This document shows positions 7,359-40,909 of a DNA stretch of 64,000 nucleotides, piece by piece; position 1 is the first letter of the stretch; each line of letters begins with the position of its first letter. The notes beneath the pieces were generated by a model. The model was not told the DNA's origin. It ran no database searches and saw only the letters and a list, made by a program, of their open reading frames with translations. A program made the translations under genes and the position numbers. The DNA is from Bacteroidota bacterium (GTDB taxonomy: Bacteria > Bacteroidota > Ignavibacteria > Palsa-1295), in contig JAUZNX010000014.1 of the NCBI GenBank assembly GCA_030706745.1, positions 9,527 to 73,526 on the forward strand. The letters are read 5' to 3'.

Positions 7359-7419
7359 AGATCTCTAACGGGTAAGGAATGATGAGTAACGAGTAACGAG
7401 TGAGAGGCCTCAGAAGTCC

Positions 7420-8934
7420 CTAAGATTTTGGCCGGATAAAGATTCTGTGCATATCCAGTTCCGGGTCAAGGGTAATCGAAAGCTCGTTCAAAATCATTGA
7501 CTGGGAGTGACGTCCACTATATTCCAACTCAAAACCGCCCGGATAATGCACGGGCTGCAACGGATGTAATTTCTCAACCGGCACGTAAATCACCGTTGGG
7601 CCGGCCATCGGGCGACCTCGGAGAAGAAGCTCAAACTCCTTTGAGCGAATATTGAATTGCATATGCACGGGTTCCGCGCTCGCCGCCATGACGTAGGGCC
7701 GACACGCGATGTCGAGATTGCGCGGCTCCTGGTTCACACCCAGCAGCGAAAAATCCTCGCGCATAAATCCGTCGAACGTTTCCGGTGTGTTATAGAGATT
7801 CACATTCCAATATGTCGCGCTGACGAGCGCTTGCTCGATCGCTTCGTATTGCCAGTTCATTTGGCGGCGCACAACGGGCCGCATCCAGTTCTGCCTCGCA
7901 CCAAACTCGGTCAGGAAGGGCGCCATCCCCTTGCTCCGAGCACTCGCCACTCCTGCCCGTTGCGCCGCAACGTACTCATCCCGCTTGGAATCGTGGAAGA
8001 TATAGCCGCCGAAGCCAGTCAGTAGCGAATCATAATAATGATAGGCAAATACGGCGCGATGGTCCCTCGATGCCATGCGAAGATATGATTCCTGCTCTTT
8101 TCCACCGACATTGACATTCCAGTCACTTTGCGGTGCGAGGAGTGCAAAGGTTTGCTGAGAGTGCCTGCGAATGCGCTCGGTAGCACCCTCATAAAATTTG
8201 GGCAGGATCTCTTCTTCGAATTCCCGGCTCTCGATGGTAGCTGGGTGCGGCTCATTGAAGATTTCGATACCAAAGACTCCGGGACGTGTAGCCGCTTCTT
8301 CGGCAACACGCTCGACCATATCGAGATAGCGATCGCGCACAGCAAAGTGAACGAGCGGCGGCGTGACCGCAGAGTTCGTCAGATCGTTGGACCAGAAATC
8401 GGTGAACGTCCGGCGCAAGTGACGATTGAACAGGTAGTTTAATCCCCAGAGCGCCGTATTCGGCAGCAGCGTTTGATCGGCGGCTTTATCCGACCGCACC
8501 CAGTCGGGCATGCCGCTACCACCATAGGCCTTGCCGACAAGATCCTGGTGAAGATCGAGAATAATCAGGAAGCCCTTTTCGATTAAGAGATCGACGTATT
8601 CGAAAAAGCTTGCCATGTAACTTTCATCGTATTCCGGCGATTCCGGATTACACGTTGGCTCGAGTGCCGACCAAATGAACGCAAGTCGTAACACTCGCCA
8701 CCCGCATGCCCACAGGAGATCGACGTATGTTTCGAAGCGCGGCCAGTCCTCCCGCGAACGGAGTGGCGTATGAGGAGGCTCCTTTGCGGATGGGCCAAAG
8801 CAAATCCCACGCAGGAGCGCATAGCGCCCATCCGTGAGCCGAAACCACGCCCCATCACTGTAGATATCTTCCACGTGCCACGTCATTGCGCGGCCAGAAC
8901 GTATTGCAGGCCTTGCGCACTCCCTCGTGCCCAC
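7420..8934 (-). CDS. Glycoside hydrolase family 5 (endoglycoceramidase-like cellulase-family enzyme). It has no signal peptide, and the real start is probably M at ~8886.
   Basis: The GH5 catalytic-acid motif appears as GIEIFNEPH, together with LDLHQD and a (beta/alpha)8-type pattern. Confidence 0.7.
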   Translation of the reverse strand: MGTRECARPAIRSGRAMTWHVEDIYSDGAWFRLTDGRYALLRGICFGPSAKEPPHTPLRSREDWPRFETYVDLLWACGWRVLRLAFIWSALEPTCNPESPEYDESYMASFFEYVDLLIEKGFLIILDLHQDLVGKAYGGSGMPDWVRSDKAADQTLLPNTALWGLNYLFNRHLRRTFTDFWSNDLTNSAVTPPLVHFAVRDRYLDMVERVAEEAATRPGVFGIEIFNEPHPATIESREFEEEILPKFYEGATERIRRHSQQTFALLAPQSDWNVNVGGKEQESYLRMASRDHRAVFAYHYYDSLLTGFGGYIFHDSKRDEYVAAQRAGVASARSKGMAPFLTEFGARQNWMRPVVRRQMNWQYEAIEQALVSATYWNVNLYNTPETFDGFMREDFSLLGVNQEPRNLDIACRPYVMAASAEPVHMQFNIRSKEFELLLRGRPMAGPTVIYVPVEKLHPLQPVHYPGGFELEYSGRHSQSMILNELSITLDPELDMHRIFIRPKS

Positions 8935-10892: not shown

Positions 10893-11933
10893 ATGGCGAA
10901 CGAGCAACGAGCAGGCTGGCGGAATACGCAGCCGATCCAGCGTGAATCAATTACAGTCCAGCGGTTCTACGACGCGATGAAGGACCGATTCCGGCTGACC
11001 CTGGTGGCCGGTCAGGAGGGACTGCCAAATCTTATCACCGATAAGAATCTGCATCGACCCGGTTTGGCCCTGGCCGGCTATGTCGGACTTTTTACTTATC
11101 ATCGAATTCAGGTCTTCGGAAATACGGAGATCTTTTATCTGCGGAGTCTGAAACTCGACGAGCGAGTGAAGGCATTCTCGACACTTGCATCATTCGCAAT
11201 CCCGTGCATCATTGTTACAGGTGGCAACACGATCGATCGCGAACTTCTCGAAATCTGTAACCAGCAAAAGATCCCGCTGTTCGAGACGCCGTTCGAGACA
11301 ACAAAGGCCGTCTTCCTCCTGGGCGATTATCTGGAAGATCAATTCAACCCGCAGACAGTCATCCATGGCGCGTTCGTCGATGTCTACGGCGTCGGAGTCT
11401 TATTCGTGGGGCGGAGCGGGATCGGGAAATCCGAGGTCGCTCTCGATCTCATCGAGAGAGGACACCGGCTCGTCGCCGATGATGTCGTCATGGTCACTCA
11501 AAAAGGTGAGAACATCCTGATGGGAGCCGGGACCGATTTGGTCCGTCACTTCATGGAGATTCGAGGTCTCGGTTTGATCAATGTCCGAGAAATGTTTGGC
11601 ATTCGTGCGATCCGATTCCAAAAGCGTGTCGAAGTCGTCGTCGAATTAGAAGAATGGCGCCCGGATGGTGAATATACCCGGACCGGTCTTGACGAAAAGA
11701 CGGCGTCGATCTTAGGGGTCGACTTGCTACATGTGAAACTCCCGATCATTACCGGCAAGAACATCACGGTCATTGCCGAAGTCATCGCGTTGAATTACCT
11801 TTTGAAGCACTACGGCTACGACGCCAGCAAGGAGTTTGCGTCAAAGCTCGAGCAGGTATTATTGCAGCGAGGCAACCAGCGGCTTGCGGGCGGCGACAGA
11901 GTCATTCCTTATTTTGAGCACGATTTCGAGTAG
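10893..11933 (+). CDS. hprK: HPr kinase/phosphorylase. The start is uncertain: the ORF track gives 10857, and ATG alternatives are 10893 or 10978.
   Basis: The N-terminus aligns with Bacillus HprK (LTLVAGQEGLPNLITDKNLHRPGLALAGY), and the P-loop GRSGIGKSE is present. Confidence 0.8.
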   Translation: MANEQRAGWRNTQPIQRESITVQRFYDAMKDRFRLTLVAGQEGLPNLITDKNLHRPGLALAGYVGLFTYHRIQVFGNTEIFYLRSLKLDERVKAFSTLASFAIPCIIVTGGNTIDRELLEICNQQKIPLFETPFETTKAVFLLGDYLEDQFNPQTVIHGAFVDVYGVGVLFVGRSGIGKSEVALDLIERGHRLVADDVVMVTQKGENILMGAGTDLVRHFMEIRGLGLINVREMFGIRAIRFQKRVEVVVELEEWRPDGEYTRTGLDEKTASILGVDLLHVKLPIITGKNITVIAEVIALNYLLKHYGYDASKEFASKLEQVLLQRGNQRLAGGDRVIPYFEHDFE

Positions 11934-11988
11934 TTCTCTCGGAATCACAGGCGTCCGTTGGCGCAATGATTGCGCGCGTGATGGCTAC

Positions 11989-12273
11989 ATGCTGTCACAA
12001 GTTACTATGGATGAGCTTCGGCGGTCGCTTTCCGGCCCACGCCCGCCAAAACTGATTGATGTTCGGGAGGCGGAAGAATTTGCCAAAGGCCACCTGAAAG
12101 GTGCGGAATTGATACCACTCTCCGATCTTGCCCGCGAAATCAAGAATCGACTGCCAAACCCTCAGGAGCCGGTCGTTCTCTATGATGATCTCGGTGTTCG
12201 ATCGCATCATGCTGCACGTTTGCTCCGAGCAATGGGTTACCGGAATGTCAAAGAAGCGATTGGGATGATTTAG
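11989..12273 (+). CDS. Single-domain rhodanese-like sulfurtransferase
   Basis: LIDVREAEEFAKGHLKGAELIPLSDL...VVLYDDLGVRSHHAARLLRAMGYRNV fits a rhodanese domain. The in-frame ATG is at 11989. Confidence 0.7.
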   Translation: MLSQVTMDELRRSLSGPRPPKLIDVREAEEFAKGHLKGAELIPLSDLAREIKNRLPNPQEPVVLYDDLGVRSHHAARLLRAMGYRNVKEAIGMI

Positions 12274-12437
12274 GCGTTGAAAGTCCACCACCTCCCAGAG
12301 GCTGGCGCTTCTGAATTTCTGGCGCTTTTTGACAATTGCGGACGAAAAGTTTCGTATATTTACAGTCTGAACTATGCACATTTTCCGTGATGTGCGCGTG
12401 TTCTGAGGCCGCGACTTTTCAAAGTCCTTTAATTTCA

Positions 12438-14510
12438 ATGAAGTATATCATGATGAAGAGAGTACTATCGCTGAGCGCAGTAGCGCTTGTTGTCTGGTCT
12501 GTGATGGTCGTCGTGCCATCTGGAAAGGCCATCGCACAGAACAAAGTATTAATTGAAGAATTTACGAGTTCGACTTGCCCGCCGTGTGCGGCGACAGATC
12601 CGATGGTTCGCCAAGTGGTATCGGATCTCCATGACAGTGTCGTCATCATTCGATGGCACCAAAATTATCCAGAGCCAGGTGATCCGAGCAACCTGATGTT
12701 CCCGGCAGGAAGAAGCCGTGGCGATTACTACGGTGTGCAGGGAATTCCCGCGGCATCAGTGAATGGCGGCATCAATTTCAATCCTGGAATTGGAGTCGCG
12801 GCATTCGAAGATAATGTTAATACTGCGCTCAGTGAGATGCAAAATTATTTCACCATGTCAGTCAGTCAAAGCACGACTCCGGATAGCGTCATCGTGTTAG
12901 TGACGGTGAAAACAGGTCCAACAGTACCAACTGACCCAGCCATGCGCTTAGCTGTTGTTGTTTGCGAGCGCTTTGCTGTTTATGCGGGATCTAATGGATT
13001 GCCGATGCATGACTATATGGCCCGAGCGGCGATTCCTGCGCTCGCAACGAACGGCAGCATTCCAGTATCAGCGGCATTCAACCAGGCTGCGAATACCACT
13101 CAAACCTACCGTTACGCGGCACAGATTAAGTCAACCTGGAATCCTGCCATGCTCGAAGCGGTAGCCTTTATTCAAAGTGAACAAGCCGCAGGAGCTATTG
13201 TCAAGCCTGTATATCAAGCTGCTTGGACTGAGAATGTAAATTTGGATATTTCACCAAACGCTACGACCGGCATTCTAATGGGTGATGGCAATACCCTCGA
13301 TTACACCGTTACGAACAATTCTTCGACTCAGCAAAAAGTCTTTTTGTCCATCGCTCCTTCGGCCTCGGTGGCGCCAAATGTTCTGACACTTAAAGGCGAT
13401 AACCTGAATGCAGATGGCTCGATCACGCTCGCGCCAATGACATCTGCCCAGGTTTCGGTCGTTGCTCCAACCTCCGGCCCATATACTGGTTGGGGTTTCT
13501 TCGGACTGATGGCCCGCACTGCTGACAGCATCGGAATTGGTGGAACGTACGGATTAGCAGTGGGTAAAGATGTAAAGACGCTCATCCTCGATAACGGAGC
13601 TGGTTTTGAAGGCATGGGGGCCGCACAGCTTTCACCCCCAAATACTCTAAAGTCGCTGAACAATATCGGTATTCCAGCGGCATTGATTCGTTATGAGAAC
13701 ATGACCGCTGCATTTAGCGATGATTGGTCTAATTTCAACAATGTGATTATTGACGGTGGTCCATATTATACAGGTGTGTTCACCAACGATGGCAGCATGG
13801 ACCGGATTACTCAGCACTTAGCCGGCGGAGGCAATTTGATCCTCGAGGACGCGCCATTTGCCGCCGTTTATTCTCGACCGAGTGTTGGCATGATTGATTT
13901 TGTCGAAGGTACATTCCATTGTGATTCTGTCAAAAACAATAGTACCACTTGGACTTCGATCAATGGTGTAGCAGGCGATCCCATTGGCGATGGCTTGTCA
14001 TCAGTAAGCGTGTCCTCTGTTACGGGCACTCAGTCCTTGAAATCATTCGATGCAGGTGGTCATGCGATTTTCACGACCAACCGAGGGGATACTGTCGGAA
14101 TTCGCTCTGAGAGTGGTCCGGGCAAGGCGGTCTATACGACATTTGAGCTTGGCAATATCTCTAGCGGCGGTGGGAAACGAGACACCGTTTTCAAGCGCAT
14201 TTTTAATTGGTTTAATTCAGCGCCATCGGCAGTCGCGACTGCTCCGGACGTTCCGAGTAATTTCGTTGCGGCGCCGAATCCATTCCACGGTATCACGCAG
14301 ATCGCCTACACCCCGTCCAAGGACGAGCATGACGTATCATTCTCTGCTTATGATCTATTGGGCCGCGAGGTTGCGAAACTGTCAGCAAAGCCGACCGGTG
14401 CATCGTATGAAGCAACGTTCGATGCAAACAGCCTTTCTGCTGGCTCGTATGTGATCGTCGTTCATTCGTCCACTGGCTCCAGGGAGCTGAAAGTACTTAA
14501 TCAAGAGTAA
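12438..14510 (+). CDS. Secreted protein with an N-terminal thioredoxin-like CPPC motif and a T9SS C-terminal sorting domain
   Basis: There is a signal peptide (MKYIMMKRVLSLSAVALVVWSVMVVVPSGKAIAQ) followed by EEFTSSTCPPCAATDP. The C-terminus NPFHGITQIAYTP...YDLLGREVAKL...LSAGSYVIVVHSSTGSRELKVLNQE is a T9SS CTD. Confidence 0.7.
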   Translation: MKYIMMKRVLSLSAVALVVWSVMVVVPSGKAIAQNKVLIEEFTSSTCPPCAATDPMVRQVVSDLHDSVVIIRWHQNYPEPGDPSNLMFPAGRSRGDYYGVQGIPAASVNGGINFNPGIGVAAFEDNVNTALSEMQNYFTMSVSQSTTPDSVIVLVTVKTGPTVPTDPAMRLAVVVCERFAVYAGSNGLPMHDYMARAAIPALATNGSIPVSAAFNQAANTTQTYRYAAQIKSTWNPAMLEAVAFIQSEQAAGAIVKPVYQAAWTENVNLDISPNATTGILMGDGNTLDYTVTNNSSTQQKVFLSIAPSASVAPNVLTLKGDNLNADGSITLAPMTSAQVSVVAPTSGPYTGWGFFGLMARTADSIGIGGTYGLAVGKDVKTLILDNGAGFEGMGAAQLSPPNTLKSLNNIGIPAALIRYENMTAAFSDDWSNFNNVIIDGGPYYTGVFTNDGSMDRITQHLAGGGNLILEDAPFAAVYSRPSVGMIDFVEGTFHCDSVKNNSTTWTSINGVAGDPIGDGLSSVSVSSVTGTQSLKSFDAGGHAIFTTNRGDTVGIRSESGPGKAVYTTFELGNISSGGGKRDTVFKRIFNWFNSAPSAVATAPDVPSNFVAAPNPFHGITQIAYTPSKDEHDVSFSAYDLLGREVAKLSAKPTGASYEATFDANSLSAGSYVIVVHSSTGSRELKVLNQE

Positions 14511-28978: not shown

Positions 28979-29224
28979 ACTTTTTGTCTGCCCACTTCGT
29001 AGCTTTGTATCAGAGAGCAGCAACAGTATCTGCTTCTTACACGAAAGACATTGTTCGAGTAGAACCGACGTGAATTAACTGGATGATCAGTCATTCAGCG
29101 TCCAGTCCCTTCGACTTCCGCGAGGCCTTATTTGTAAGCCGCCGTCCTCTGTGAGTGACGGGTAACTCACCTGCACGATTATTTGCCGTGCATGTACTAC
29201 ACTTTTTTTTTACACAATCTAATC

Positions 29225-30451
29225 ATGAAGAATCTAATAAATCGCAGCCTCGCGCTGCTCACTTTGGGTATTATCGGAATCGCAGGATTGAGCCAAACGA
29301 CTCGTGCACAGGATGTCGCTGGCAGAATTGCATTTGGTATCGATGCCGGCGGCAATAAATACTATGGCAACTATACAGATAATCAATTTGCCTTTCATGG
29401 TGATGCGTTTATCCGCTGGAATATCTTCGATTGGTTGTCGTTGCATGCAGCATATAACGGCGGACAGTTGAAGTACAAAGCATCGACGGCGTCGATTGCG
29501 AATGAGGCCGCCCTCTTCCCGAACAGCACTGCCAGCACTGGTACGCTGGGCACCGTCAACCACACTCGGGTCGGAGGATGGGACATCATGGCATCGTACA
29601 ATGTCTTCCCGGATCAGACATTCGTACCCTACGTCATTGCCGGTGTCGAAGCACTGAACTTCGAGCCGAATGATGCGAATGATGCCAACCTGAGAGGCAA
29701 CGCCTCAGCCGCATACAGCAAGAATGTAATTGGTGGCGTGATGGGCGTTGGATTCGAAATGTTCATTTCGCCCAAGGTTACGTTCAACGGCAAGGGCTTG
29801 CTTCATCTAACGGGCACCGATTGGATCGACGACTATTCCAATCCGAATGATTACCGTCAGGATGCATTCGTGACCATGGGTCTCGGATTCAGTTATTACA
29901 TTTTCGCACCTGATGTGGAAGCCGCTCCGGCCCAGGCGGAAGTATCAGAGCGGACGATCATCCATGATATCACAGAAAAGACCGTCTATCACACCGATAC
30001 GATCTTCGTCAAGGACCCGACCGATACCGTCTACATCTCGAATCCAAAGATCAACACGGTCTTCAATTTCCCGGGCACGCTCTTTATCGTGAATACCGAT
30101 CAATTCAATACCGCCGAGCCGAACAATATGGCCAATCTTTACCAGATCAAGCGACTGGTCGAGCAATGCCCAAATCTGAAAGTGGAGATTCAAGGCTTTG
30201 CGAGTGAAGAAGGTACCACGCAGCACAATCAAGAGCTTTCCGAGCGCCGCGCCGCTCGCATCAAGAGCTGGCTCATCGAGCAAGGTGTCAACTCGAATAA
30301 GGTGACACGAACGGTGGGATTCGGAGAGACCAACAATGCAGTCCGCGAACGCTCTGATGTTTCCGCAAAGACCCTTGAAGCCGAGCGTACACAGAACCGA
30401 CGAATTGCAGTGAAGGTCGTTCAGGCCTGCAGCGACGAATCGTCGCGCTAA
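29225..30451 (+). CDS. OmpA-family outer-membrane protein (N-terminal beta-barrel plus C-terminal OmpA peptidoglycan-binding domain)
   Basis: The signal peptide is MKNLINRSLALLTLGIIGIAGLSQTTRAQ. The C-terminal motif is NTAEPNNMANLYQIKRLVEQCPNLKVEIQGFASEEGTTQHNQELSERRAARIKSWL. Confidence 0.8.
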   Translation: MKNLINRSLALLTLGIIGIAGLSQTTRAQDVAGRIAFGIDAGGNKYYGNYTDNQFAFHGDAFIRWNIFDWLSLHAAYNGGQLKYKASTASIANEAALFPNSTASTGTLGTVNHTRVGGWDIMASYNVFPDQTFVPYVIAGVEALNFEPNDANDANLRGNASAAYSKNVIGGVMGVGFEMFISPKVTFNGKGLLHLTGTDWIDDYSNPNDYRQDAFVTMGLGFSYYIFAPDVEAAPAQAEVSERTIIHDITEKTVYHTDTIFVKDPTDTVYISNPKINTVFNFPGTLFIVNTDQFNTAEPNNMANLYQIKRLVEQCPNLKVEIQGFASEEGTTQHNQELSERRAARIKSWLIEQGVNSNKVTRTVGFGETNNAVRERSDVSAKTLEAERTQNRRIAVKVVQACSDESSR

Positions 30452-30484
30452 GAACAACAACTCATCATACAAGGAATTATGAAC

Positions 30485-33214
30485 ATGAAAGACTATACAA
30501 CGTTACGAATGAGAGGGGTATGCGCTATCGCATGCCTCTCCATTCTCTTCTACTTTAGTACGCAAGCCATTGGGCAATTGCGTCCGAATCTTGGCACAGC
30601 ATCGACCTACGCCATATTCACGGGCGGCGGAGCGATTAACGTCGCCACTGGCGACACAGCTGTTCTGACGGGCGATGTCGGTCAGGATGGCGCGTATGCC
30701 TTCAATGGGTTTCCTCCGAGTACTTATACCGGCACGTTGAATCAAAACAACAGCGCATCGGCACTCGCGAAACAAGATCTGATTAGCGCTCAGACGGCCG
30801 ACGGTCTCGTGGCCTGCGGTACGGTGCTCAGCACCACTGTCGTGGACGGACAATCGTTCGATCCTGGCGTCTATTGCTCTGGAGGTGCTACGACGACCGT
30901 CGGGAACATAACATTCAATGCGCATGGCGATGGGACCGCCATCTTTATCGTCAAGATCGGCGGTGCGTTGACCGCGCACTCGACCACGCATATCTTGCTG
31001 TCGAACAACGCGCGCGCGGCCAACATCTATTGGTTCGTCAATGGCCAGGTAACGGTAGCCGATAGCTCGAGCTTCACGGGGACGATTATCGCGAACGGCG
31101 CAATTTCGTTCGCTGGTAAGTCCTCACTCAATGGCAGGGCACTCGTTGCTCCCTTGGGCGCGATTAACTTAGCGGCAAACCACATGTCGATCTCGACCGA
31201 TACGGGTTCGACGGTGAACAATCTTACCGTTGTAAAACCCGCCTCGGGAGATTCAATCCTAAGAAACACGCTCAACGATACGATCCGTTGGACGGGAACA
31301 GGCATCGCACGGGTGAAGACGCTGCAATACTCACTCGACAGCGGGCGAACCTGGAGCACGATTGCTACCATCACGACCGATTCGTTGATGTATCTTTGGC
31401 ACGTTCCAGATACGACCTCGACGAAAGCAATGGTTCGCGTCACCGACACGAACAACTTAAGAGGTGAGAGCAGAATTTTTAAGATCATATCGAATCAGAT
31501 CACCGTCACCCATCCTGCGCTTGCGGAAGTGATCACGGGCGGTACACAAAACTACCAAGTAACCTGGACCGGCACGGGACTTACCAAAAAGAAGATCTTC
31601 GAATATTCGCTCGATAGCGGTCTGACATGGAAGACCATCGGCACCATCTCCGCTGATACATTCGCGTATCGCTGGAATGTTCCGGATACGGCCTCGAAGC
31701 GTGCGATGGTACGCATCACCGATTCGCTTGGGGTTACCGGCAAGAGTGGCCTCTTTACGATCGGATCGAGCAGAATCACCGTGCTGCATCCTGCTTCCGG
31801 AGAGATACTCGCAAGTGGAACACTGAATTACCAGATCACCTGGAGCGGCACGGGACTGACCGCTCGAAAGACGTTTGAGCTATCGCTCGATGGCGGCCTC
31901 ACGTGGAAATTGATCGGCACGCTAACGGCGGATGTGTTCAACTACTATTGGCGCGTTCCGGACACGGCATCGACAATGGCTGTGATTCGCATTACCGATT
32001 CAAATGGTATCTCAGGAAAGAGCAGCATATTTGCGATTCAATCCACCAAGACTCTCATAGTCGTCCGTCCCGTCGCTGGCGAGGTAGTCGCCTCGGGAAT
32101 GCAAGGATATCAGATTACTTGGGCCGGCAACGGACTCACGGCGCAGAAGTCGTTCGAGCTATCGCTCGATGGCGGACTGACCTGGGTATCGATTGGCAGC
32201 ATCTCGGCGGATGTCTTTACCTATTCCTGGAATGTTCCGGATACAGTCTCTTCACAGGCCGTAATCCGTATCACGAACAATAACGGCACAACGTCCGTCT
32301 CCGGTGTGAGCGGGGTCTTTTCGATCCGTCGCAATGTCGGTAGTATTGTCGTCACACATCCAGTTGCCGGAGAAGTCGTCGATGGCGGCTATGTGAACTT
32401 CCCGATTAACTTCACCGCGACGAACGTCACAGCACAAAAGACCTTCGAGTATTCACTCAATGGTGGTGCAACGTGGAGTTTGATTGGCATCATGAACTCG
32501 GACGGACAGAGCTACGCATGGGCGAGCGTGCCTAATGTCGCCACGACGCAAGCACTCGTTCGCATTCGGGATGCCAATGGCATCACCGGAATCAGTGGCC
32601 TCTTCACAATTTCCGTAAAACCGAATATTGGCACGATCAACGAAGTTATTTTGAGTGGGCTCGACAACGCACAAAACATCGGCAACCGTCGTCAGTTGGG
32701 AATTTCCTGGACCTATACGCCCGATATCGGGACATCCGTCGAGGTCGAATACTCGCTCGATTATATGGTCACCTGGAGCCACATTGCAACAGTACCGGTT
32801 ACGGAATCTCCGAACTCCACCGCATGGCTGACCACCGCGTCTGGATATTACAATCCAGTGTTCATTCGCGTCACCAGTTCACTGGGTATGACGAGACTTT
32901 CATCTGCATTCTCGATCGGATCGAGTGCTTCGGTCGCTTCCGAGGCTTCCAAGAATGGATACTCTGTTTCGAACTACCCCAACCCGGCCAGCAGCCAGAC
33001 GACGATCAAGTTGATCCTTCCGGTGCCCAGCGACGTCACGTTGACATTGCTTGACGCACTCGGAAGAGAAGTCGATATGATTGCTTCGGGGCATTTGGGT
33101 GCCGGTTCGGTTGAGATTCCTTTCATTACCGATAAGCTGCTCGCAGGCAACTACATCTATGTATTGCAGGCTGGAGCGACAAGACTCGTCGGTCATCTTA
33201 CTTTAATCAAGTGA
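30485..33214 (+). CDS. Secreted adhesin-like protein with an N-terminal DUF3494 ice-binding-like domain, six ~95-aa tandem beta-sandwich repeats and a T9SS C-terminal sorting domain
   Basis: LGTASTYAIFTGGGAINVATGDTAVLTGDVG matches the IBP/DUF3494 start. The repeats carry Y.W.VPDT.S..A.VRITD. The CTD is NYPNPASSQTTIKL...LLAGNYIYVLQAG. Confidence 0.65.
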   Translation: MKDYTTLRMRGVCAIACLSILFYFSTQAIGQLRPNLGTASTYAIFTGGGAINVATGDTAVLTGDVGQDGAYAFNGFPPSTYTGTLNQNNSASALAKQDLISAQTADGLVACGTVLSTTVVDGQSFDPGVYCSGGATTTVGNITFNAHGDGTAIFIVKIGGALTAHSTTHILLSNNARAANIYWFVNGQVTVADSSSFTGTIIANGAISFAGKSSLNGRALVAPLGAINLAANHMSISTDTGSTVNNLTVVKPASGDSILRNTLNDTIRWTGTGIARVKTLQYSLDSGRTWSTIATITTDSLMYLWHVPDTTSTKAMVRVTDTNNLRGESRIFKIISNQITVTHPALAEVITGGTQNYQVTWTGTGLTKKKIFEYSLDSGLTWKTIGTISADTFAYRWNVPDTASKRAMVRITDSLGVTGKSGLFTIGSSRITVLHPASGEILASGTLNYQITWSGTGLTARKTFELSLDGGLTWKLIGTLTADVFNYYWRVPDTASTMAVIRITDSNGISGKSSIFAIQSTKTLIVVRPVAGEVVASGMQGYQITWAGNGLTAQKSFELSLDGGLTWVSIGSISADVFTYSWNVPDTVSSQAVIRITNNNGTTSVSGVSGVFSIRRNVGSIVVTHPVAGEVVDGGYVNFPINFTATNVTAQKTFEYSLNGGATWSLIGIMNSDGQSYAWASVPNVATTQALVRIRDANGITGISGLFTISVKPNIGTINEVILSGLDNAQNIGNRRQLGISWTYTPDIGTSVEVEYSLDYMVTWSHIATVPVTESPNSTAWLTTASGYYNPVFIRVTSSLGMTRLSSAFSIGSSASVASEASKNGYSVSNYPNPASSQTTIKLILPVPSDVTLTLLDALGREVDMIASGHLGAGSVEIPFITDKLLAGNYIYVLQAGATRLVGHLTLIK

Positions 33215-33477: not shown

Positions 33478-34773
33478 TTGCCTCAGTATTTTATGTCACC
33501 ATCATGGCAGGCTGCCCCGCTTCCAATTCTACCTGAAGGCAAACGCCACAGCCTCTTCACGATTGCGTTCAAGTTTTTCCCGACGACCTTCCTGGTCAAG
33601 GCGATCGGTATTACACTGACGTCTTCGCTGTTCATCTACAATTACCTACTAAATAATCACGTTGATTCCATCGTGACCCGCGCGCTGCTCACTGCGGCGA
33701 TTGTTGTGGCGGCTCCGACGATTGCGCTCTACCTCATCACCCTGGCGCGCGCCCCGCGAATCCGAAAACGCGAAGAACGTGAAGCGCTACACTTGCAACA
33801 CATCGCACATGGCGACTTAGAGGCCCTCCAGGCGAAGGAGCAAAAGGAGGCGAACGAGATCGTGCGACTCGAACAGGTCGCTTCCAGGGTCTTAAAGGCA
33901 AGTACGGTCAAGGACCAGAAGGAGAACGATCGGTGGGATTTGTTAAACGAATCCCTCCGCCTGCAGAAAGAAACGGTCGAGTTGGCGACAGAAGAAAGAC
34001 TTCTCGTTGCACAGCAGGTCAAAGAAATCAAAGAGGAAGGTGAAGTAATCCGGAAGGGATTGGTCTCGGATGATTTGGAAGCGCGGCACAAGAAGGACTT
34101 AAAAGAAGATAAGCGCTGGGATGTGCTCACCGAATCGCTCCGCATTCAACGGGAGACTGTGGAATTAGCATCAGAAGAGAGGCTTTTGGTTGCCCAGCAA
34201 GTTAAGGATGTCAAGGATGAGCGAGAGATTGTACGTATTGGCTTAGCCCTGGACGACCTGAAAGCCAGAGACGTGAAGGATCGCAAAGAAGACGAACGGT
34301 GGGAGTTGTTGAACGAGTCACTCCGGCTGCAGAAGAAGACTGTTGATTTGGCCTCGGAGGAGCGACTCCTTGTCGCCAAGCAGGTCAAAGACATCAAGGA
34401 CGAGGGCGAGGTCATGAGAAAGGGATTAGTGTCCGATGACTTGGAGGCCCGACACATCAAGGAGGAAAAAGAAGAGAAGCGTTGGAACGCGCTCTACGAA
34501 CGCCTGCGGATTCAGGACGAACGAAATGAGGAACGGGAACAACGGCAACTACGCCGAGATGAAGAACAGACTCGGATTCGGCATGAGGAAGAACTCAAGG
34601 ACAAATATCGAACGCTCTTCGACCGATACCTGAGAAATTCTTCGGGGGACACTTTGAATCGGGACGTTGCCGATGGGTTGGCGCCGATCCCGGACGATTG
34701 GCTCAACAAGCAGCCGGAAATACTCAAGAATCCGGCGCTGCTGCGATTACTTGATCCCTACAATGGACAGTAA
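33478..34773 (+). CDS. Membrane-anchored coiled-coil protein with four tandem ~51-aa repeats
   Basis: It has two N-terminal TM segments, then four copies of KE(N/D)xRWxLLNESLRLQKETVELA(T/S)EERLLVAQQVK(E/D)(I/V)K(E/D)EGEV(I/M)RKGLVSDDLEARH. Confidence 0.6.
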   Translation: MPQYFMSPSWQAAPLPILPEGKRHSLFTIAFKFFPTTFLVKAIGITLTSSLFIYNYLLNNHVDSIVTRALLTAAIVVAAPTIALYLITLARAPRIRKREEREALHLQHIAHGDLEALQAKEQKEANEIVRLEQVASRVLKASTVKDQKENDRWDLLNESLRLQKETVELATEERLLVAQQVKEIKEEGEVIRKGLVSDDLEARHKKDLKEDKRWDVLTESLRIQRETVELASEERLLVAQQVKDVKDEREIVRIGLALDDLKARDVKDRKEDERWELLNESLRLQKKTVDLASEERLLVAKQVKDIKDEGEVMRKGLVSDDLEARHIKEEKEEKRWNALYERLRIQDERNEEREQRQLRRDEEQTRIRHEEELKDKYRTLFDRYLRNSSGDTLNRDVADGLAPIPDDWLNKQPEILKNPALLRLLDPYNGQ

Positions 34774-34814
34774 CCCTCCTGTACATTTATACACGACAAT
34801 TTTAGACGCTAACA

Positions 34815-35288
34815 ATGATGCCGAACCCTCTGATTCTTATCCTGGCCGACGATGACAAAGACGATTGCCTCTTCTTCACAGACGCGTTAGGAGAGTTGCC
34901 GGTAACGGCGAACCTCACGACTGTGCATAATGGCGAGCAGCTCATGCAGCTTCTTGCCGATGAGACGGTCGCGCCTCCGCCCCCACACGTTCTGTTCCTC
35001 GATCTGAATATGCCCCGCAAGAATGGCTTTGAATGCCTGGCGGAGATCAAAAGCGACGAACGATTGAGGCAACTTCCCGTCATTATCTTTTCAACCTCAT
35101 TTGAGCAGGACGTCGTGAATTTGCTCTATAAGAAGGGTGCGCACTACTATATCCGAAAGCCAGCCGAATTTGCATTACTTAAAAAAGTAATTTATCAGGC
35201 GCTGCTTCTGGCAACGGAAAATACATCGTTGCAGCCGGCGCAAGAGCACTTTGTTCTCAAAGGAGATTCGGAGGCCGTTCAAATATGA
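34815..35288 (+). CDS. Stand-alone response-regulator receiver (CheY-like) protein
   Basis: ILILADDDKDDCLFF...LFLDLNMPRKNG...VIIFSTS are receiver-domain signatures. Confidence 0.8.
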   Translation: MMPNPLILILADDDKDDCLFFTDALGELPVTANLTTVHNGEQLMQLLADETVAPPPPHVLFLDLNMPRKNGFECLAEIKSDERLRQLPVIIFSTSFEQDVVNLLYKKGAHYYIRKPAEFALLKKVIYQALLLATENTSLQPAQEHFVLKGDSEAVQI

Positions 35289-35830
35289 ATAAAACACCAA
35301 GTATGATGCTCACTACACAAGTTTCTGTTGCCAAGAGTGGCGCGTCGGCCATACCGGGGGCCGCGAACCGAAGTTCGATTCTTCTTGCCGATGACGACAG
35401 GGACGATTGCAACTTTTTTAAGGATGCGTTGGACGAACTGCCGGTAACAGCAGCCCTGACAACCGTGCGTGATGGCGAGCAACTCATGAAGGTACTTGCA
35501 GAAGTAGCCATCGCGCCGCCGTCGCCTTATGTGTTGTTTTTGGATCTTAACATGCCACGGAAGAATGGCTATGACTGTCTGGCGGAGATAAAGCTTGACG
35601 AACGATTACGGCGCATTCCGGTCATTATTTTTTCCACATCCTATGATCCGCGTGTCGTCGACTTGCTCTACACCGTGGGAGCCGACTATTACATTCGGAA
35701 ACCCGCCGACTTTGCGGAACTCAAGAAGGTCATTTATCAAGCGCTGGTGCTTGCGACAAAGGGATACTCTTCGCAGCCGCTGAAAGAGGATTTCGTTCTC
35801 AAGGGAGAATTAGGAACGATACAACAATGA
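35285..35830 (+). CDS. Stand-alone response-regulator receiver protein, a tandem paralogue of the upstream receiver
   Basis: ILLADDDRDDCNFF...LFLDLNMPRKNG is present. It is ~60% identical to the upstream receiver and overlaps it by 4 nt. Confidence 0.8.
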   Translation: MNKTPSMMLTTQVSVAKSGASAIPGAANRSSILLADDDRDDCNFFKDALDELPVTAALTTVRDGEQLMKVLAEVAIAPPSPYVLFLDLNMPRKNGYDCLAEIKLDERLRRIPVIIFSTSYDPRVVDLLYTVGADYYIRKPADFAELKKVIYQALVLATKGYSSQPLKEDFVLKGELGTIQQ

Positions 35831-37929
35831 ATACCGAACGACCAACCCAAACCGCGAACCGATTCCCCTCAGGCGATGCCGCCACCGCTGCAGTCACTTC
35901 GGCGGCTCTCGCATCCGCGGCCGTCGCCAAAGCCGCTGTTGCCACGGTAGAGATGGCTAAGTCCGCCGTTGCAAAAGCTGGTGTTGCCCAAGCAGCGGTC
36001 ACCGAAGCAGCAGTTACGACGATGGGCAACGGAGCCTTCCAACGTGATCGCTTCCGAAGCAAAAAGTCGGATAAGTTAATCATTGCGAACAAGGAGCTTG
36101 CGTTTCAGAATGATGAGAAGGAGAAGCGGGCGGCAGAGCTGATCATTGCAAACAAAGAGCTTGCATTCCAAAACAAGGAAAAGGCGAAACGGGCAGCCGA
36201 GTTGCGGATCGCGAACAAGGAGCTTGCATTCCAGAACGATGAAAAGGAAAAGCGTGCGGCCGAGTTGGGGATTGCGAACAAAGAGCTTGCCTATCAGGAT
36301 GAGGAGAAGGAGAAGCGAGCGGCCGAACTCAATATCGCGAACAAAGAGCTTGCCTTCCAAAATAAAGAGAAGGAGAAGCGGGCCGCCGAGCTGAGCATTG
36401 CGAACAAGGAACTCGCATTTCAGAACGATCAAAAGGAAAAACGCGCGGAAGAGCTCGTCGTTGCAAATAAGGAACTTGCTTACCAAAATCAGGTCAAGGA
36501 AAAACGAGCCGCAGAGTTAGTGGTTGCCAACGATGAGCTTGCATTCCAGAATAAGGAAAAGGAGAAGCGAGCCGCGGAACTCGCCATTGCCAATATTGAA
36601 CTCGCATTTCAAAATGACGAGAAGGAGAAGAGGGCAGCGGAATTAGGTGTTGCCAACCAGGAGCTCGCATTCCAAAATGAAGAGAAAGAAAAGCGAGCGG
36701 CTGAGTTACGGATTGCGAACAAGGAGCTCGCCTTCCAAAACAAAGAAAAGGAAAAGCGTGCGGCGGAATTGAGTATTGCGAATAAAGAGCTGGCGTTTCA
36801 AAACGATCAGAAGGAGAAGCGAGCCGGGGAGTTGGTAGTTGCGAATAAGGAACTCGCCGTACAAAATCAGGTGAAGGAAAAGCGCGCGGCAGAGCTCAAC
36901 GTCGCCAATATCGAGCTCGCCTTCCAAAACCATGAGAAGGAAAAACGGGCGGCAGAGCTTAATATTGCGAATATTGAGCTTGCCTACCAAAACGATGAAA
37001 AAGAAAAGCGGGCGGCGGAGCTAAGCGTTGCAAACGAGGAACTTGCTTTCCAGAACAATGAAAAGGAGAAGCGAGCGGAAGAGCTGAGCATAGCCAATAA
37101 GGAGCTGGCCTTTCAAAACGACGAGAAAGAAAAACGCGCGGCGGAGCTCATTGTCGCCAATAAGGAACTGGCCTTCCAAAACGACGAAAAAGAGAAGCGC
37201 GCCGAAGAATTGAGCATCGCAAACAAAGAGTTGCTGGCTTTTACATACGTGTCGAGCCATGACTTGCAGGAGCCGCTACGGAAGATACAGACCTTCGTGA
37301 GCCGGATCAGCGACAACGAGGATGCGAACCTTACTGATAAAGGTCGTGACTATTTCCACCGAATCCAAGAAGCCGCGAAGCGGATGCAAACCCTGATTGA
37401 AGACCTGCTTGCATTTTCTCGCGTCAATACAGCTGAACGAATATTCGTCAACACCGATCTTAACATTATTATCGAAGAAGTAAAGACCGAACTGAAGGAC
37501 ACCATAGATGAAAAGCGGGCGACCATTGATGTCACAGAAGTGTGCCCGGCTAATGTCATTCGGTTTCAGTTTCGTCAGTTGATGCTCAATCTCGTCGGCA
37601 ACGCGCTTAAATTCTCAGATCCTCAGATCCCACCCCACATCATTATCACGAGCAAGATTGAAACCGGCAGTCAGTTGAACAACGAGAAGCTCTCTTCTGA
37701 AAAACAATATTGTCACATCACAGTCACCGACAACGGGATCGGCTTTGAGCCCAAGTTCAACGATCGCATTTTTGAGGTATTCCAAAAACTTCACGACAAA
37801 GAAGAATATGCCGGTACCGGCATTGGGCTGGCTATTGTGAAGAAAATCGTTGAGAACCATAATGGGATCATCACCGCAACGAGCGAACTCAACAAGGGCG
37901 CGCGATTCGATATTTATATACCGGCATAA
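35827..37929 (+). CDS. Sensor histidine kinase (HisKA + HATPase_c) whose N-terminal region consists of an Ala-rich segment plus ~18.5 tandem 22-aa coiled-coil repeats (ELxIANKELAFQNxEKEKRAAE)
   Basis: The H-box is LAFTYVSSHDLQEPLRKI. The ATPase motifs are VGNALKFS, DNGIGF and GTGIGLAIV. No PAS/GAF or periplasmic sensor domain is seen. Confidence 0.85.
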   Translation: MNTERPTQTANRFPSGDAATAAVTSAALASAAVAKAAVATVEMAKSAVAKAGVAQAAVTEAAVTTMGNGAFQRDRFRSKKSDKLIIANKELAFQNDEKEKRAAELIIANKELAFQNKEKAKRAAELRIANKELAFQNDEKEKRAAELGIANKELAYQDEEKEKRAAELNIANKELAFQNKEKEKRAAELSIANKELAFQNDQKEKRAEELVVANKELAYQNQVKEKRAAELVVANDELAFQNKEKEKRAAELAIANIELAFQNDEKEKRAAELGVANQELAFQNEEKEKRAAELRIANKELAFQNKEKEKRAAELSIANKELAFQNDQKEKRAGELVVANKELAVQNQVKEKRAAELNVANIELAFQNHEKEKRAAELNIANIELAYQNDEKEKRAAELSVANEELAFQNNEKEKRAEELSIANKELAFQNDEKEKRAAELIVANKELAFQNDEKEKRAEELSIANKELLAFTYVSSHDLQEPLRKIQTFVSRISDNEDANLTDKGRDYFHRIQEAAKRMQTLIEDLLAFSRVNTAERIFVNTDLNIIIEEVKTELKDTIDEKRATIDVTEVCPANVIRFQFRQLMLNLVGNALKFSDPQIPPHIIITSKIETGSQLNNEKLSSEKQYCHITVTDNGIGFEPKFNDRIFEVFQKLHDKEEYAGTGIGLAIVKKIVENHNGIITATSELNKGARFDIYIPA
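36070..37245 (+). repeat. About 18.5 tandem 66-bp in-frame repeats inside the histidine-kinase gene, with a higher-order duplication (units 5-7 nearly equal units 11-13)
   Basis: The protein repeats were counted directly. Both strands show repeat-shadow ORFs. Confidence 0.8.
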
Positions 37930-37979: not shown

Positions 37980-38327
37980 TTAACCCGCCACTTTCTCCTC
38001 AGCCTCTTCGCCTTCGTGGACAATATCGCCGGTGGTGAAGAGGATTCCCTGCATAATCTCCCGCCACTGGGGCGTGCGACGAAGCAAGAATTCGAGGTCC
38101 ATGCCGAAGTGCTTGAATTCCTCTTTCTGGGCATTCCGCATGATTGCTTTGGCAGTCGCGTCCGACTCCACCGAGATGCGTTGTTGGTACCAACCGATGG
38201 CCTCAGCTTCTTCGGTGAGCGAAGTGATCATGCGCGCGAATGTGCGCGTCTCTTTCGAAAGTTCGTTCGGCGGTTCGTGGTATTGGGTAGTGGCCATGAT
38301 TTTGGTAAAAGCGTGCAGTATGGTCAC
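37980..38327 (-). CDS. Ferritin-like four-helix (EncFtn/rubrerythrin-like) small protein. The likely start is MATTQYHEPP at 38297.
   Basis: LTEEAEAIGWYQQRI...AIMRNAQKEEFKHFGMDLEFLLRR fits the E...E..H diiron/ferroxidase-type motif pattern. Confidence 0.5.
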   Translation of the reverse strand: MTILHAFTKIMATTQYHEPPNELSKETRTFARMITSLTEEAEAIGWYQQRISVESDATAKAIMRNAQKEEFKHFGMDLEFLLRRTPQWREIMQGILFTTGDIVHEGEEAEEKVAG

Positions 38328-39419: not shown

Positions 39420-40391
39420 TCACTGCTTGACAGCCGCCAGTTCCACTGTCGCCTTCTTCACCATCTCGTAAAGATAGATCTTCCCGCCATCACTGTAAAC
39501 CAGCATCGTTTCCTTCGGAGCGATGGCGAGTGGTCGCGCGGCGGCGGGCAGCGAGAGGTCCGTGTTCGTCGCTATATCATGCACGCGCCACTTGTCGCCG
39601 TCATCGAAGATTTGGTACTTGCCATTCGGTGAGTAATCGGTCCATGCGCTGGCACTCATCACTAAGTTTCCGGCGGGATCGAGTAAGGCGCCCATGAAGC
39701 TCCCGGTATTGCCCGGATCGCCAAGTCGCGTGCGTTCTGTCGATTCGATATCGTACAGCATCAGTGCGGCTCCGGGGTTGGGACGCGCAATCAAAATCTT
39801 CTTTTGATCGCGAGTCCAGGAGAGGACGCGCCAATTGCGATCATTAGGAAGGATCAGATCACTCGTGTATTGCTGGGTATCGTAGCGGTAGCAATCGACT
39901 TTGTCCTTGTGGACTTTGTTCGCCGTGTAATAGACGTAGCGGCCGTTATACGATAGACCTATGATCTCCGCGTTGGCGTCGCCGGACAAATCCTGCGGTT
40001 GATCGGAGCCATCATCTTTTTGTTTGTAGATGTGATAATCCTTGCCATTCTCACCAAGCCGCATAAATATGATTTCGGGCCGATTGGTCAGATGCACAAA
40101 GCGAACGATTGGACGATCGGTGAACTTGGTAACCTGCGTTGGCGTCATCCCCGGAGTCGCCGTGATACGGCTGTATTTATCGGCGATGACGAGGCTAAAA
40201 ACATTTCCACCTGAGAGATAGAAGACCCGTTTCTCGTCGTTCGAGAAGGTGGCGTCCCCCACGTTGCCAATACCATTTCTCGTGCTGGAATCAATGGCTG
40301 GCAGCGCATGCCAGAACTGCGCGTGCGCCGAGGAATCCGTGATTATAGAATAAAGCGCGAAGAGAGCGAAAATAATGATCGTGCGTTTCAT
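39420..40391 (-). CDS. Secreted beta-propeller-like hypothetical protein
   Basis: There is a signal peptide (MKRTIIIFALFALYSIITDSSAHAQ). Repeated YxxxGxxVYY / DGxxI motifs resemble TolB/PD40-type blades. Confidence 0.45.
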   Translation of the reverse strand: MKRTIIIFALFALYSIITDSSAHAQFWHALPAIDSSTRNGIGNVGDATFSNDEKRVFYLSGGNVFSLVIADKYSRITATPGMTPTQVTKFTDRPIVRFVHLTNRPEIIFMRLGENGKDYHIYKQKDDGSDQPQDLSGDANAEIIGLSYNGRYVYYTANKVHKDKVDCYRYDTQQYTSDLILPNDRNWRVLSWTRDQKKILIARPNPGAALMLYDIESTERTRLGDPGNTGSFMGALLDPAGNLVMSASAWTDYSPNGKYQIFDDGDKWRVHDIATNTDLSLPAAARPLAIAPKETMLVYSDGGKIYLYEMVKKATVELAAVKQ

Positions 40392-40393
40392 AG

Positions 40394-40423
40394 ATCATCA
40401 TTCATCATTCTTCATTCATCATT
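40394..40423. repeat. Short tandem repeat (TCATCAT/TCATTCA units; minus-strand reading GAATGATGAATGA x2) in the 38-nt gap between two co-directional genes, ending 3 nt upstream of the start codon
   Basis: The sequence is atcatcattcatcattcttcattcatcatt. Confidence 0.5.
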
Positions 40424-40429
40424 AGTTCT

Positions 40430-40909
40430 CTAATGCCCGAGAGAGCAGGCTTCTAAAGCACTTTGATCTTCAAATTCAAGGAGGCGGACGGTCCCCTTGC
40501 CGTATCCCAGCATATAATGGATTTCCTCATTATCCCAGATCCAGTAGACGCCTTGCTCGTCTCTGGCTCTGGCAGGTGGAGCGCCCAGAGACTTGCCAAG
40601 ATCCTTTGCGATACTATCGACCCGAAACTTTTCGACCGGCATGTAGGTAAGCCAATCGACTTTGGTCAGGCGTTGGCTGGTGTCAATATGATAAACCATA
40701 TGGCCGTCCAAATCCCAGAAGCGGACGCCGAGACACGATGAATCGCCGTGATCGGCAGGGAGTGGCTTAGCATCCCAGTGTTCCAGGCAGGAATCAACAC
40801 TCGTTGCAGGTGCTCCAATCGCCAAAGGTTGGGCGCGAAGTTGCGCTGCGCCTGCCAGAATGATAGCGGCGATGAAGAAAGAGAAACGACAATTGGCGAG
40901 CACTTTCAC
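40430..40909 (-). CDS. Secreted hypothetical protein (159 aa)
   Basis: There is a signal peptide (FFIAAIILAGAAQLRAQ). No motifs were found. Confidence 0.4.
   Translation of the reverse strand: MKVLANCRFSFFIAAIILAGAAQLRAQPLAIGAPATSVDSCLEHWDAKPLPADHGDSSCLGVRFWDLDGHMVYHIDTSQRLTKVDWLTYMPVEKFRVDSIAKDLGKSLGAPPARARDEQGVYWIWDNEEIHYMLGYGKGTVRLLEFEDQSALEACSLGH

Follow-up and report, generated by a model that had tools for sequence, protein, structure and literature searches.

The module described here lies on contig JAUZNX010000014.1 of assembly GCA_030706745.1, from a Bacteroidota bacterium (Ignavibacteria; Palsa-1295), of which a stretch of 64,000 nucleotides (positions 9,527 to 73,526 of the forward strand; hereafter the window) was analysed. 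Between 33.4 and 37.9 kb of this window, four co-directional open reading frames (ORFs) encode a membrane protein with long coiled-coil repeats, two stand-alone receivers (RR1 and RR2) and a histidine kinase that carries a tandem array of a 21-amino-acid (aa) unit (Table 1). The membrane protein gene ends 41 bp before RR1, while the RR1/RR2 and RR2/kinase junctions are overlaps of 4 bp, and the gene downstream of the kinase is convergent to it. With such short or overlapping junctions and a convergent neighbour, the four genes plausibly form one operon.

Table 1. Coordinates of the four genes and of the features within them (window positions; lengths in aa).
Feature	Position	Strand	Basis and remarks
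Membrane coiled-coil protein gene	33493..34773	+	ORF opens with TTG at 33478; likely start ATG at 33493, giving 426 aa
Two hydrophobic segments	33583..33747	+	Kyte-Doolittle scan; about aa 36-58 and 69-90 of the 431-aa ORF
Three full 61-aa repeats	33928-34476	+	Self-alignment; RWDLLNESLRLQ...DDLEARH
Start of fourth 61-aa repeat	34477-34515	+	Self-alignment
Conserved C-terminal domain, about 67 aa	34570..34770	+	YRTLFxRYxRN...VADGLAPIPxxWLxxQPEIxKNPAL; homologue alignments; AF2 pLDDT 84-95
RR1, stand-alone receiver, 157 aa	34815..35288	+	Pfam Response_reg 4.3e-15
RR2, stand-alone receiver, 181 aa	35285..35830	+	Pfam Response_reg 6.7e-15
Histidine kinase, 700 aa	35827..37929	+	Start codon overlaps RR2 stop (ATGA)
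Ala/Val-rich low-complexity tract (kinase aa 17-65)	35875..36021	+	Read from sequence; roughly pentameric xAAVA
18 full 21-aa / 63-bp units (kinase aa 84-461)	36076-37209	+	Consensus LxIANKELAFQNxEKEKRAAE
Partial 19th unit, LSIANKEL	37210-37233	+	Runs in register into LAFTYVSSHDLQEPL (H-box)
DHp (HisKA) domain (kinase aa 472-534)	37240..37428	+	Pfam HisKA 4.1e-12
Phospho-accepting His478	37258-37260	+	H-box SHDLQEPLRK
Catalytic ATP-binding domain (kinase aa 581-699)	37567..37923	+	Pfam HATPase_c 2.1e-20

The kinase belongs to class I (HisKA-type): a DHp domain with the H-box histidine is followed by a GHKL domain in which the N (NLVGNALKF), G1 (DNGIGF), F (FEVFQKL) and G2 (GTGIGL) boxes could be read from the translation. 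An AlphaFold2 (AF2) model reproduced the DHp and catalytic ATP-binding (CA) folds, with helices at aa 341-497 and 504-532 and a normal alpha-2 leading into the CA domain. Foldseek searches with this model retrieved bacteriophytochrome kinase modules and HK853 with E values of ~1e-16, and the kinase core was 34% identical to the bacteriophytochrome kinase module 8f71. As stated in a preliminary description of this locus, made from the letters alone, the kinase has no recognisable sensor domain. Pfam and NCBIfam profile searches gave HisKA and HATPase_c and no other credible domain; specifically, none of the PAS, GAF and PHY domains that make up a phytochrome photosensory module was matched anywhere in the 700 aa. 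Two further profile matches were rejected. PH_SLA1 (PF24081) reached a whole-protein E value of 1.2e-10 without a single stretch that passes individually, and it falls on repeats (aa 264-308) that are predicted to be all-helical; the match to OM14_C contained no individually significant stretch either.

The preliminary description also held that the kinase lacks a transmembrane (TM) segment. This is probably right, although the Ala/Val-rich tract near the N-terminus has a borderline hydropathy (maximum 1.58 over 19 aa). The tract has a rhythm of about five residues (xAAVA, KAAVA, KSAVA and so on), was modelled as a helix at aa 19-61 with a predicted local distance difference test (pLDDT) score of 52-69, and contained no DNA repeat according to Tandem Repeats Finder (TRF). 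It is restricted to a sub-clade of the orthologues (the window and loci L007, L012 and L013); the other orthologues have a short basic N-terminus, 'MKTxKxTK...KKSDK', which leads directly into the repeats. On the opposite strand, too, this region is open (35799-36092). At locus L001 (assembly GCA_030706365, of the same population; 11013-13114), a 1-bp deletion relative to the window and to L002 splits the kinase into ORFs of 616 and 84 aa, which is probably a sequencing or assembly error and not the mark of a pseudogene.

The remainder of the kinase is dominated by the repeat array, which measures 386 aa in total (36076..37233) and would extend over ~57 nm as a helix. This agrees well with the ~390 aa of tandem repeats reported in the preliminary description, but the unit itself had to be corrected. 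A period of 22 aa (66 bp) with two heptad-compatible turns had been proposed, in which the first Glu/Leu of the next unit was counted twice; the true period is 21 aa (63 bp). This correction matters since 21 aa are exactly three heptads, which means that an unbroken heptad periodicity, as expected of a coiled coil, runs through the array. Consistent with the shorter unit, TRF reported a period of 63 bp with 18.3 copies (36081-37234). A degenerate DNA pattern of the motif core had 17 matches in the 64-kb window, all of them in the kinase gene, where 0.00 were expected.

The units had been regarded as near-perfect and as the product of a recent expansion. However, pairwise DNA identity between the units is only 62-86% (mean 72.5%), compared with a mean protein identity of 80.5% and 12 of 21 columns that are invariant. 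Most nucleotide differences between units (1868 of 2647, or 71%) are located at codon position 3, and synonymous sites are nearly saturated. Furthermore, the order of the unit variants, as read at unit residues 13-14 (...EE KE DQ QV KE DE EE KE DQ QV HE DE NE DE DE), is kept across 12 syntenic orthologues of other species. When units are compared between species, DNA identity is 78-79% for those at the same position and 71-72% for those at different positions, from which it follows that the array is not being homogenised by gene conversion. The match noted earlier between units 5-7 and 11-13 holds for the protein (95% each) but not for the DNA (76-79%), and it belongs to a six-unit duplicated block that is present in most orthologues, though not in L005, and is therefore ancient. 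Finally, two other assemblies of the same population contain the same 18.4-unit array at 99.9% identity. The DNA divergence, its third-position bias and the conserved variant order together show that the array is old and under purifying selection, and that it results neither from recent expansion nor from an error of assembly.

The array does vary in length between species, as had been proposed, with 37 to 67 heptads among the 12 orthologues and 51-55 heptads in eight of these. In a search for variation in copy number between strains, the only close relatives found were those from the same population (99.9%), which have the same array. Orthologue L016 displays a run of six near-identical 'EE' units at the N-terminal end of its array, which could be a local expansion.

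The heptad register is maintained across these differences in length. The distance between the first motif and the H-box equals 5 modulo 7 in each of the 12 orthologues, even though it ranges from 271 to 481 aa, and all internal gaps between motifs are 21, 28, 42 or 49 aa, i.e. the irregularities correspond to whole heptads gained or lost. Among the top 120 homologues, 1295 of the 1302 inter-motif spacings (99.5%; spacings of <=130 aa) are multiples of seven. The junction with the kinase core is equally fixed: the last full AN-motif is located exactly 33 aa before the H-box histidine in the window kinase and in all 12 orthologues, and the same spacing was found in each of the top 120 homologues that have an SHD[LI] H-box immediately behind the array. 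A few arrays (P0031, P0043 and others) have spacings that are no multiple of seven, namely 59, 38, 80 and 104 aa. At four residues short of 63, the first of these (59 aa) would amount to a classical 'stutter' of a coiled coil, and such non-heptad spacings may mark deliberate register shifts.

The helical character that had been assigned to the repeats was supported by structure prediction, in which the repeat region is all-helical. In the AF2 model the helix at aa 341-497 is unbroken from the repeats via His478 to the end of DHp alpha-1. The model is that of a monomer, and we infer a parallel dimer from the continuity of the array with the DHp domain. A hairpin that AF2 placed at aa 333-340 was treated as an artefact of monomer modelling, since pLDDT is <50 at this site, a conserved turn motif is lacking and the orthologues differ in unit number.

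To describe the unit itself, conservation was computed over 1451 units, considering only those positions that are not fixed by the search pattern. L1 is present in 100% of the units, followed by K15, R18 and E21 (99% each), A19 (97%), E14 (96%), K17 (95%), F10 (91%) and I3 (85%). Arranged by heptad, positions {1,8,15} are L, L and K, positions {5,12,19} are N, N and A, positions {3,10,17} are I, F and K, and positions {7,14,21} are all E. The only large hydrophobic residues on the core face are L1 and L8.

What the preliminary description did not recognise is that the motif extends beyond this gene and characterises a large family of signalling proteins. A search with a six-unit query against 1.84 billion cluster representatives returned 1,549 proteins with E <=1e-3, 965 with E <=1e-10 and 394 with E <=1e-30. 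This amounts to ~1,000-1,500 clusters at 50% identity, with 5-22 repeats per relative and with hosts in Chitinophagaceae, Flavobacterium, Cyclobacteriaceae, Mariniphaga and Kapabacteria. In a Pfam scan of 72 of the best family representatives, HisKA was the most frequent domain (56/72), followed by PAS (about 34/72), Response_reg (17/72), CHASE3 (6/72), GGDEF (4/72), HD of the HD-GYP type, GAF and Hpt (3/72 each), and SpoIIE (PP2C) and a class III cyclase (1/72 each). The arrays are situated between sensors (PAS, CHASE3, GAF, REC) and dimeric outputs (HisKA, GGDEF, cyclase, PP2C, HD-GYP), with GGDEF, cyclase and several types of H-box following the repeats directly. We regard the motif as a module of general use in signal transduction. 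In P0016, for example, a TM-CHASE3-TM sensor is followed within ~5 residues by 21 contiguous units and then by the DHp domain. PAS-containing members have a unit that runs into the PAS N-cap, and the PAS C-terminus 'DVTEQKWAKDLRIANKEL' aligns with 'QNDEKEKRAAELIIANKEL'; given these matches, the unit looks like a PAS-flanking linker helix turned into a repeat. Many other members consist of ~10 N-terminal residues, the repeats and the kinase, and nothing more.

This family is apparently undescribed. No model for the 21-aa motif was found in Pfam or NCBIfam, and its members bear unspecific names in the databases ('PAS domain S-box protein', 'ATP-binding protein'). With seven units as the query, no sequence in the PDB matched better than E = 0.2, a search of the accessible literature by motif string found no paper, and a keyword search found only general papers on coiled coils, S-helices and linkers. 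What the members do carry in the databases is PF24081, a eukaryotic PH-like domain that scores above its gathering threshold on the repeat through summed weak matches; this false positive appeared in 15 of the 72 scanned representatives and in the precomputed annotations of most family members (e.g. P0001-P0120).

Among known signalling helices the closest parallel is the S-helix, a heptad-based helix with polar interface residues that connects sensors to histidine kinase, cyclase, PP2C or GGDEF outputs (Anantharaman, Balaji & Aravind 2006; PMC1592074). The 21-aa family occupies the same niche, with sensors N-terminal and dimeric outputs C-terminal, of which the window kinase has the downstream half only. 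There is also some likeness in sequence, as the half-motif 'KRAAELxIANKEL' resembles 'ERTxELxxANxxL' when the two are compared by eye, without a score. On the other hand, the S-helix is a single module of ~40 residues (five heptads) with 'ERT' at positions c, d and e of its central heptad (PMC1592074), whereas the unit of the window kinase has 21 residues and is repeated 18.4 times (5-22 times in relatives). The ERT signature is absent from this unit: R18 (99%) is followed by Ala (97%), without a Thr, and the N-terminal half is spaced differently. Moreover, some family members (e.g. P0239) carry a canonical ERT S-helix in addition to, and downstream of, the repeats, which shows that these are two distinct modules. 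Judged by its sequence and its position, the array would work like an S-helix or linker without being a member of the S-helix family.

A second parallel is provided by the PAS-DHp and PAS-PAS linkers (FixL/YF1 J-alpha, DIT motif; Möglich et al. 2009). The activity of the engineered kinase YF1 depends on linker length with a heptad period, and both this dependence and the heptad periodicity of natural linker lengths have been taken as signatures of a continuous signalling coiled coil (PMC6798134). Like these linkers, the array has a heptad-periodic length and a helix that is continuous into DHp alpha-1, and like the DIT-linker the family repeats flank PAS domains. The linkers differ in being only a few heptads long and in following a sensor; the window kinase has 54 heptads and no sensor, and its linker is itself tandemly repeated. 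Within the repeat family, the CHASE3 TM sensor kinases (P0016) have identical 21-aa units and the same DHp junction, but in these the TM segments and a periplasmic CHASE3 domain are fused to the array, where the window kinase has only an 83-aa low-complexity N-terminus.

The presence of two receiver-only proteins upstream of the kinase was confirmed, as Response_reg is the only Pfam or NCBIfam domain in either RR1 or RR2. RR1 contains the acidic pocket D12-D14, the phospho-acceptor D63 and the motifs 'FSTS' and 'YIRKP'. RR2 has an N-terminal extension of 24 aa and its phospho-acceptor at D87, with an equivalent pocket and with the Ser/Thr and Lys residues kept. Both proteins thus show the receiver fold, the key residues and the absence of an output domain that characterise single-domain receivers of the Rcp1/RcpA type. 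The solved structures closest to RR1 are the phytochrome receivers RcpA (1k68, 4.3e-17) and Rcp1 (1i3c, 3.8e-14), with RcpB also retrieved. The two receivers are indeed tandem duplicates, as described before, but with 70% identity (in protein and DNA alike) instead of ~60%. RR1 is 72-80% identical to the single receiver of 10 related loci, compared with 65-72% for RR2, and RR2 is absent from the other syntenic loci. Their 70% identity and the absence of RR2 elsewhere point to a duplication that is lineage-specific but not recent. On these comparisons, RR1 is the orthologue of the single receiver in related loci and RR2 an older, lineage-specific duplicate of RR1.

The membrane protein gene encodes two hydrophobic segments and long helical repeats, in line with the preliminary description, but these repeats are not four of 51 aa; there are three complete ones and a partial fourth, each unit being 61 aa long. 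Self-identity of the protein was 52.5% at an offset of 61 and at most 13.5% at any other offset. Identity between the units is 64-79% for the protein and 64-75% for the DNA, and TRF found no DNA tandem repeat in this gene, i.e. the repeat is visible at the protein level only. Basic stretches flank the hydrophobic segments (GKRH before and RAPRIRKREERE after). By the positive-inside rule this argues for an N-in/C-in hairpin, and we infer that the helical repeats and the C-terminal domain are cytoplasmic. Public assemblies annotate the 426-aa form, which is identical to P0124. In the numbering of this form, the AF2 model has helices at 31-54 and 60-234, such that the second TM segment continues into a helix of ~175 residues. 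The overall shape of this model (pLDDT 77.8, predicted template modelling score 0.27), including a break at 235-243, is not to be trusted.

No Pfam, NCBIfam or PADLOC match was obtained for the membrane protein, a profile search with its C-terminal domain found only two short fragments of the same family, and Foldseek comparison of the model with the PDB gave no match with E < 3. The family comprises 82 homologues, all in metagenome-assembled genomes of the Kapabacteria/Ignavibacteriota type, and their lengths (304, 362, 426 and 495-508 aa) reflect the copy number of the 61-aa repeat. At locus L005, a second, shorter paralogue (303 aa; 7079-7990) is located between the 362-aa copy and the receiver, and at L022 and L023 stand-alone family members of 304 aa occur without an adjacent receiver-kinase pair.

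That the genes form a signalling module, as first suggested from their arrangement in the window, is supported by synteny. Thirteen Kapabacteria/Ignavibacteriota loci, whose flanking genes are unrelated, have genes for a membrane protein, a receiver and a repeat kinase in this order, and this conservation is the strongest evidence available for a functional link among them. Sensor-less repeat kinases outside the Kapabacteria clade likewise have stand-alone receiver genes, one to five in number, in front of them. At one such locus in Chitinophagaceae (L025/L026, 1-6509), a sensor-less repeat kinase follows five tandem single-domain receivers and a 1565-aa CheB-CheR-PAS-HisKA-REC hybrid, a layout which suggests that repeat kinases can sit in multi-receiver phosphorelay networks.

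The module can be compared with two characterised arrangements. Cph1/Rcp1 and bacteriophytochrome systems have in common with it the kinase core and the single-domain receivers encoded beside the kinase gene. They differ in that the window kinase lacks PAS-GAF-PHY, that the receiver genes are upstream of the kinase and that a membrane coiled-coil protein accompanies them. In Caulobacter, the activity or location of the kinase PleC is set by PodJ, a separate coiled-coil-rich, membrane-anchored scaffold, as outlined in PMC8980812. This resembles the role that the synteny suggests for the 61-aa-repeat protein; the PleC-PodJ pair has no sequence relationship to the window module, and PleC has its own PAS sensor.

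Taken together, a bacteriophytochrome-like kinase core and Rcp-like receivers point to a Cph1/Rcp1-type system without a photosensor. The reading we favour, which as a whole has a slightly better than even chance of being correct, is that of a phytochrome-type two-component system with a long signalling coiled coil and no sensor domain, which receives its input from the membrane protein. The array would form one continuous parallel dimeric coiled coil of ~57 nm, fused in fixed register to DHp alpha-1, and the balance between kinase and phosphatase activity at His478 would be set by changes in the coiling, register or dimer stability of the array at any point of its length. From there the phosphoryl group would pass to RR1, the ancestral partner, and to RR2, the lineage-specific duplicate. 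Receivers without an output domain must act via protein-protein contacts or as a phosphate sink, and RR1 and RR2 probably act through such contacts. The 2-TM protein would supply input or membrane anchoring, either as a 'split' membrane sensor or as a scaffold; in a kinase that has no sensor of its own, the input may come from this protein, from the stability of the zipper itself, or from both. The parts of this reading are not equally secure. We consider the structure of the module and the identity of its components highly probable, while the input through a membrane partner is a tentative proposal that falls somewhat short of an even chance.

Several observations weigh against this reading. 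Sensor-less repeat kinases with receivers upstream are common in other Bacteroidota, and no homologue of the membrane protein was found there, which means that this protein cannot be the general input. The length of the membrane protein is also unrelated to that of the kinase array (Spearman rho 0.08, p 0.81, n=12). Matched rulers are thus not supported, and of the earlier view that both repeat proteins are long alpha-helical 'rulers' the predicted helicity stands but a precise ruler finds no support. With regard to the coiled coil, the AF2 monomer has a low-confidence break at aa 333-340 and half of the array has a pLDDT of only ~50-60. The core is unusually polar, with either N, N, A at a and L, L, K at d, or L, L, K at a and A, Q, R at d. 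In addition, I3 and F10 are located opposite L1/L8, at position 'f', and there is hardly any variation at positions b, c and f. Neither this outward Ile/Phe stripe nor the near-invariance of b, c and f is explained by a plain dimeric coiled coil, and the combination of the stripe with conservation on all faces keeps alive the idea of a second interface, for partner binding or lateral assembly.

Such an interface would be central if the array were a multivalent platform for docking or assembly, with units that bind receivers, paralogous kinases or the helices of the membrane protein, or that pack kinase dimers into bundles or clusters. This would account for the conservation of all helix faces, including I3, F10 and K17 at 'f' and E7, E14 and E21 at 'c', across the 1451 units from many species, and for the position-specific unit identities that are kept between species. 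It would also fit the one to five stand-alone receiver genes that regularly precede repeat kinases, and the finding that paralogous kinases with the same motif can adjoin (L009). However, heptads in strict phase and a register fixed at 33 aa from the H-box are needed by a transmitting helix and not by a docking rack, and the arrays are placed between CHASE3 or PAS sensors and their outputs; we regard a platform as unlikely. A related idea is that the array is a distinct, undescribed module with two functional faces, a polar Asn/Leu zipper and the opposite Ile/Phe stripe, which either conducts signals over 50-70 nm or assembles a lattice. Conduction over such a distance is what the CHASE3-TM-21-unit-DHp proteins would require, and a higher-order lattice could bring together kinases, receivers and, in Kapabacteria, the membrane coiled-coil partner. 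If the lattice version were true, two-component kinases would build a cytoplasmic counterpart of the chemoreceptor arrays. To this two-faced module, too, we assign a low probability.

The coiled coil could also be the sensor itself, as a marginally stable, charged zipper that responds to temperature, ionic strength or pH. The coiled-coil thermosensor TlpA offers an analogy, and no sensor domain would then be needed, in keeping with the many family members that have only ~10 N-terminal residues, repeats and a kinase. About one third of the core positions are large hydrophobic residues and each unit has two Asn on its core face, and long arrays would be expected to give cooperative transitions. 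Nevertheless, comparative data provide no link to temperature or salt, the same repeats are found downstream of bona fide sensor domains, and the variation from 37 to 67 heptads among orthologues follows no obvious ecological pattern, which makes this proposal distinctly unlikely. Still less probable is a purely passive role of the array, as a spacer or 'ruler' that keeps the kinase domains a set distance away from an anchor, with regulation coming entirely from elsewhere, for example from receivers that act on the DHp domain. In favour of this are its length, uniformity and helicity and the 51-55 heptads of 8 of the 12 orthologues. Yet the kinase has no anchor of its own, array length varies overall (37-67 heptads) and shows no co-variation with the length of the membrane protein, and a spacer would not need 15 near-invariant residues out of 21. 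A recently expanded, hypervariable stalk (contingency-type variation), or an array collapsed or expanded during assembly, is scarcely credible. The range of 37-67 heptads between species and the six near-identical 'EE' units in L016 might be cited in its favour, but it is already contradicted by the ~27% DNA divergence between units, mostly at third codon positions, by a variant order conserved in >10 species that have the six-unit duplication in common, by the greater similarity of orthologous (78-79%) than of paralogous units (71-72%), and by three assemblies of the same population with an identical 18.4-unit array.

Returning to the favoured reading of a sensor-less system with a signalling coiled coil, its wider interest lies in the length and conservation of that coil. 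Coiled-coil linkers are an accepted route by which sensors control histidine kinases, cyclases and diguanylate cyclases, and those that have been studied are, to our knowledge, only a few heptads long. The family described here extends such a linker to 37-67 heptads, with nearly every residue invariant over many species, and often as the sole 'input' of the enzyme. It therefore offers a natural case in which to test over what distance, and through which motion, a signal can be passed along a coiled coil, and whether a kinase can be regulated without any sensor domain, be it by a membrane partner, by receivers or by zipper stability. In the array we see no new principle but the known signalling coiled coil in an extreme form, repeated and frozen in sequence, with a clade-specific membrane partner. 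What lifts the finding above routine is mainly a conservation of all faces that a plain dimeric zipper does not explain; in addition, the motif is widespread and unannotated, and no solved structure of it was found. A curated model of the motif would improve the annotation of ~1,000 or more clusters in Bacteroidota and related phyla.

Scans of the locus for other elements yielded little: a terminator scan gave background level only, promoter-like matches within the repeat units were dismissed as one chance match that recurs with the repeat, and a PADLOC scan for anti-phage defence returned nothing relevant. The gene convergent to the kinase (37980-38327, minus strand) encodes an EncFtn-like (encapsulin-associated ferritin-like) protein (Pfam 6.7e-24), and no encapsulin shell gene is evident among the ORFs immediately neighbouring it; an EncFtn-like gene likewise follows the kinase at L001 and L002. 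Upstream of the module, an OmpA-family gene (29183-30451) precedes the gene for a 911-aa secreted protein (30479-33214, plus strand). The latter has an N-terminal ice-binding-like domain (1e-27), about six internal repeats of ~90 aa (…W.G.GL…SLDGGLTW…VPDT.S…RITD…) and a weak C-terminal sorting signal of the type IX secretion system. The same gene pair is located upstream of the module at L005, but not at L003, L007 or L009. Finally, a 7-bp tandem repeat (TCATCAT × 4.1; 40395-40423) lies in the 38-bp gap between the minus-strand ORFs 39420-40391 and 40430-40909.

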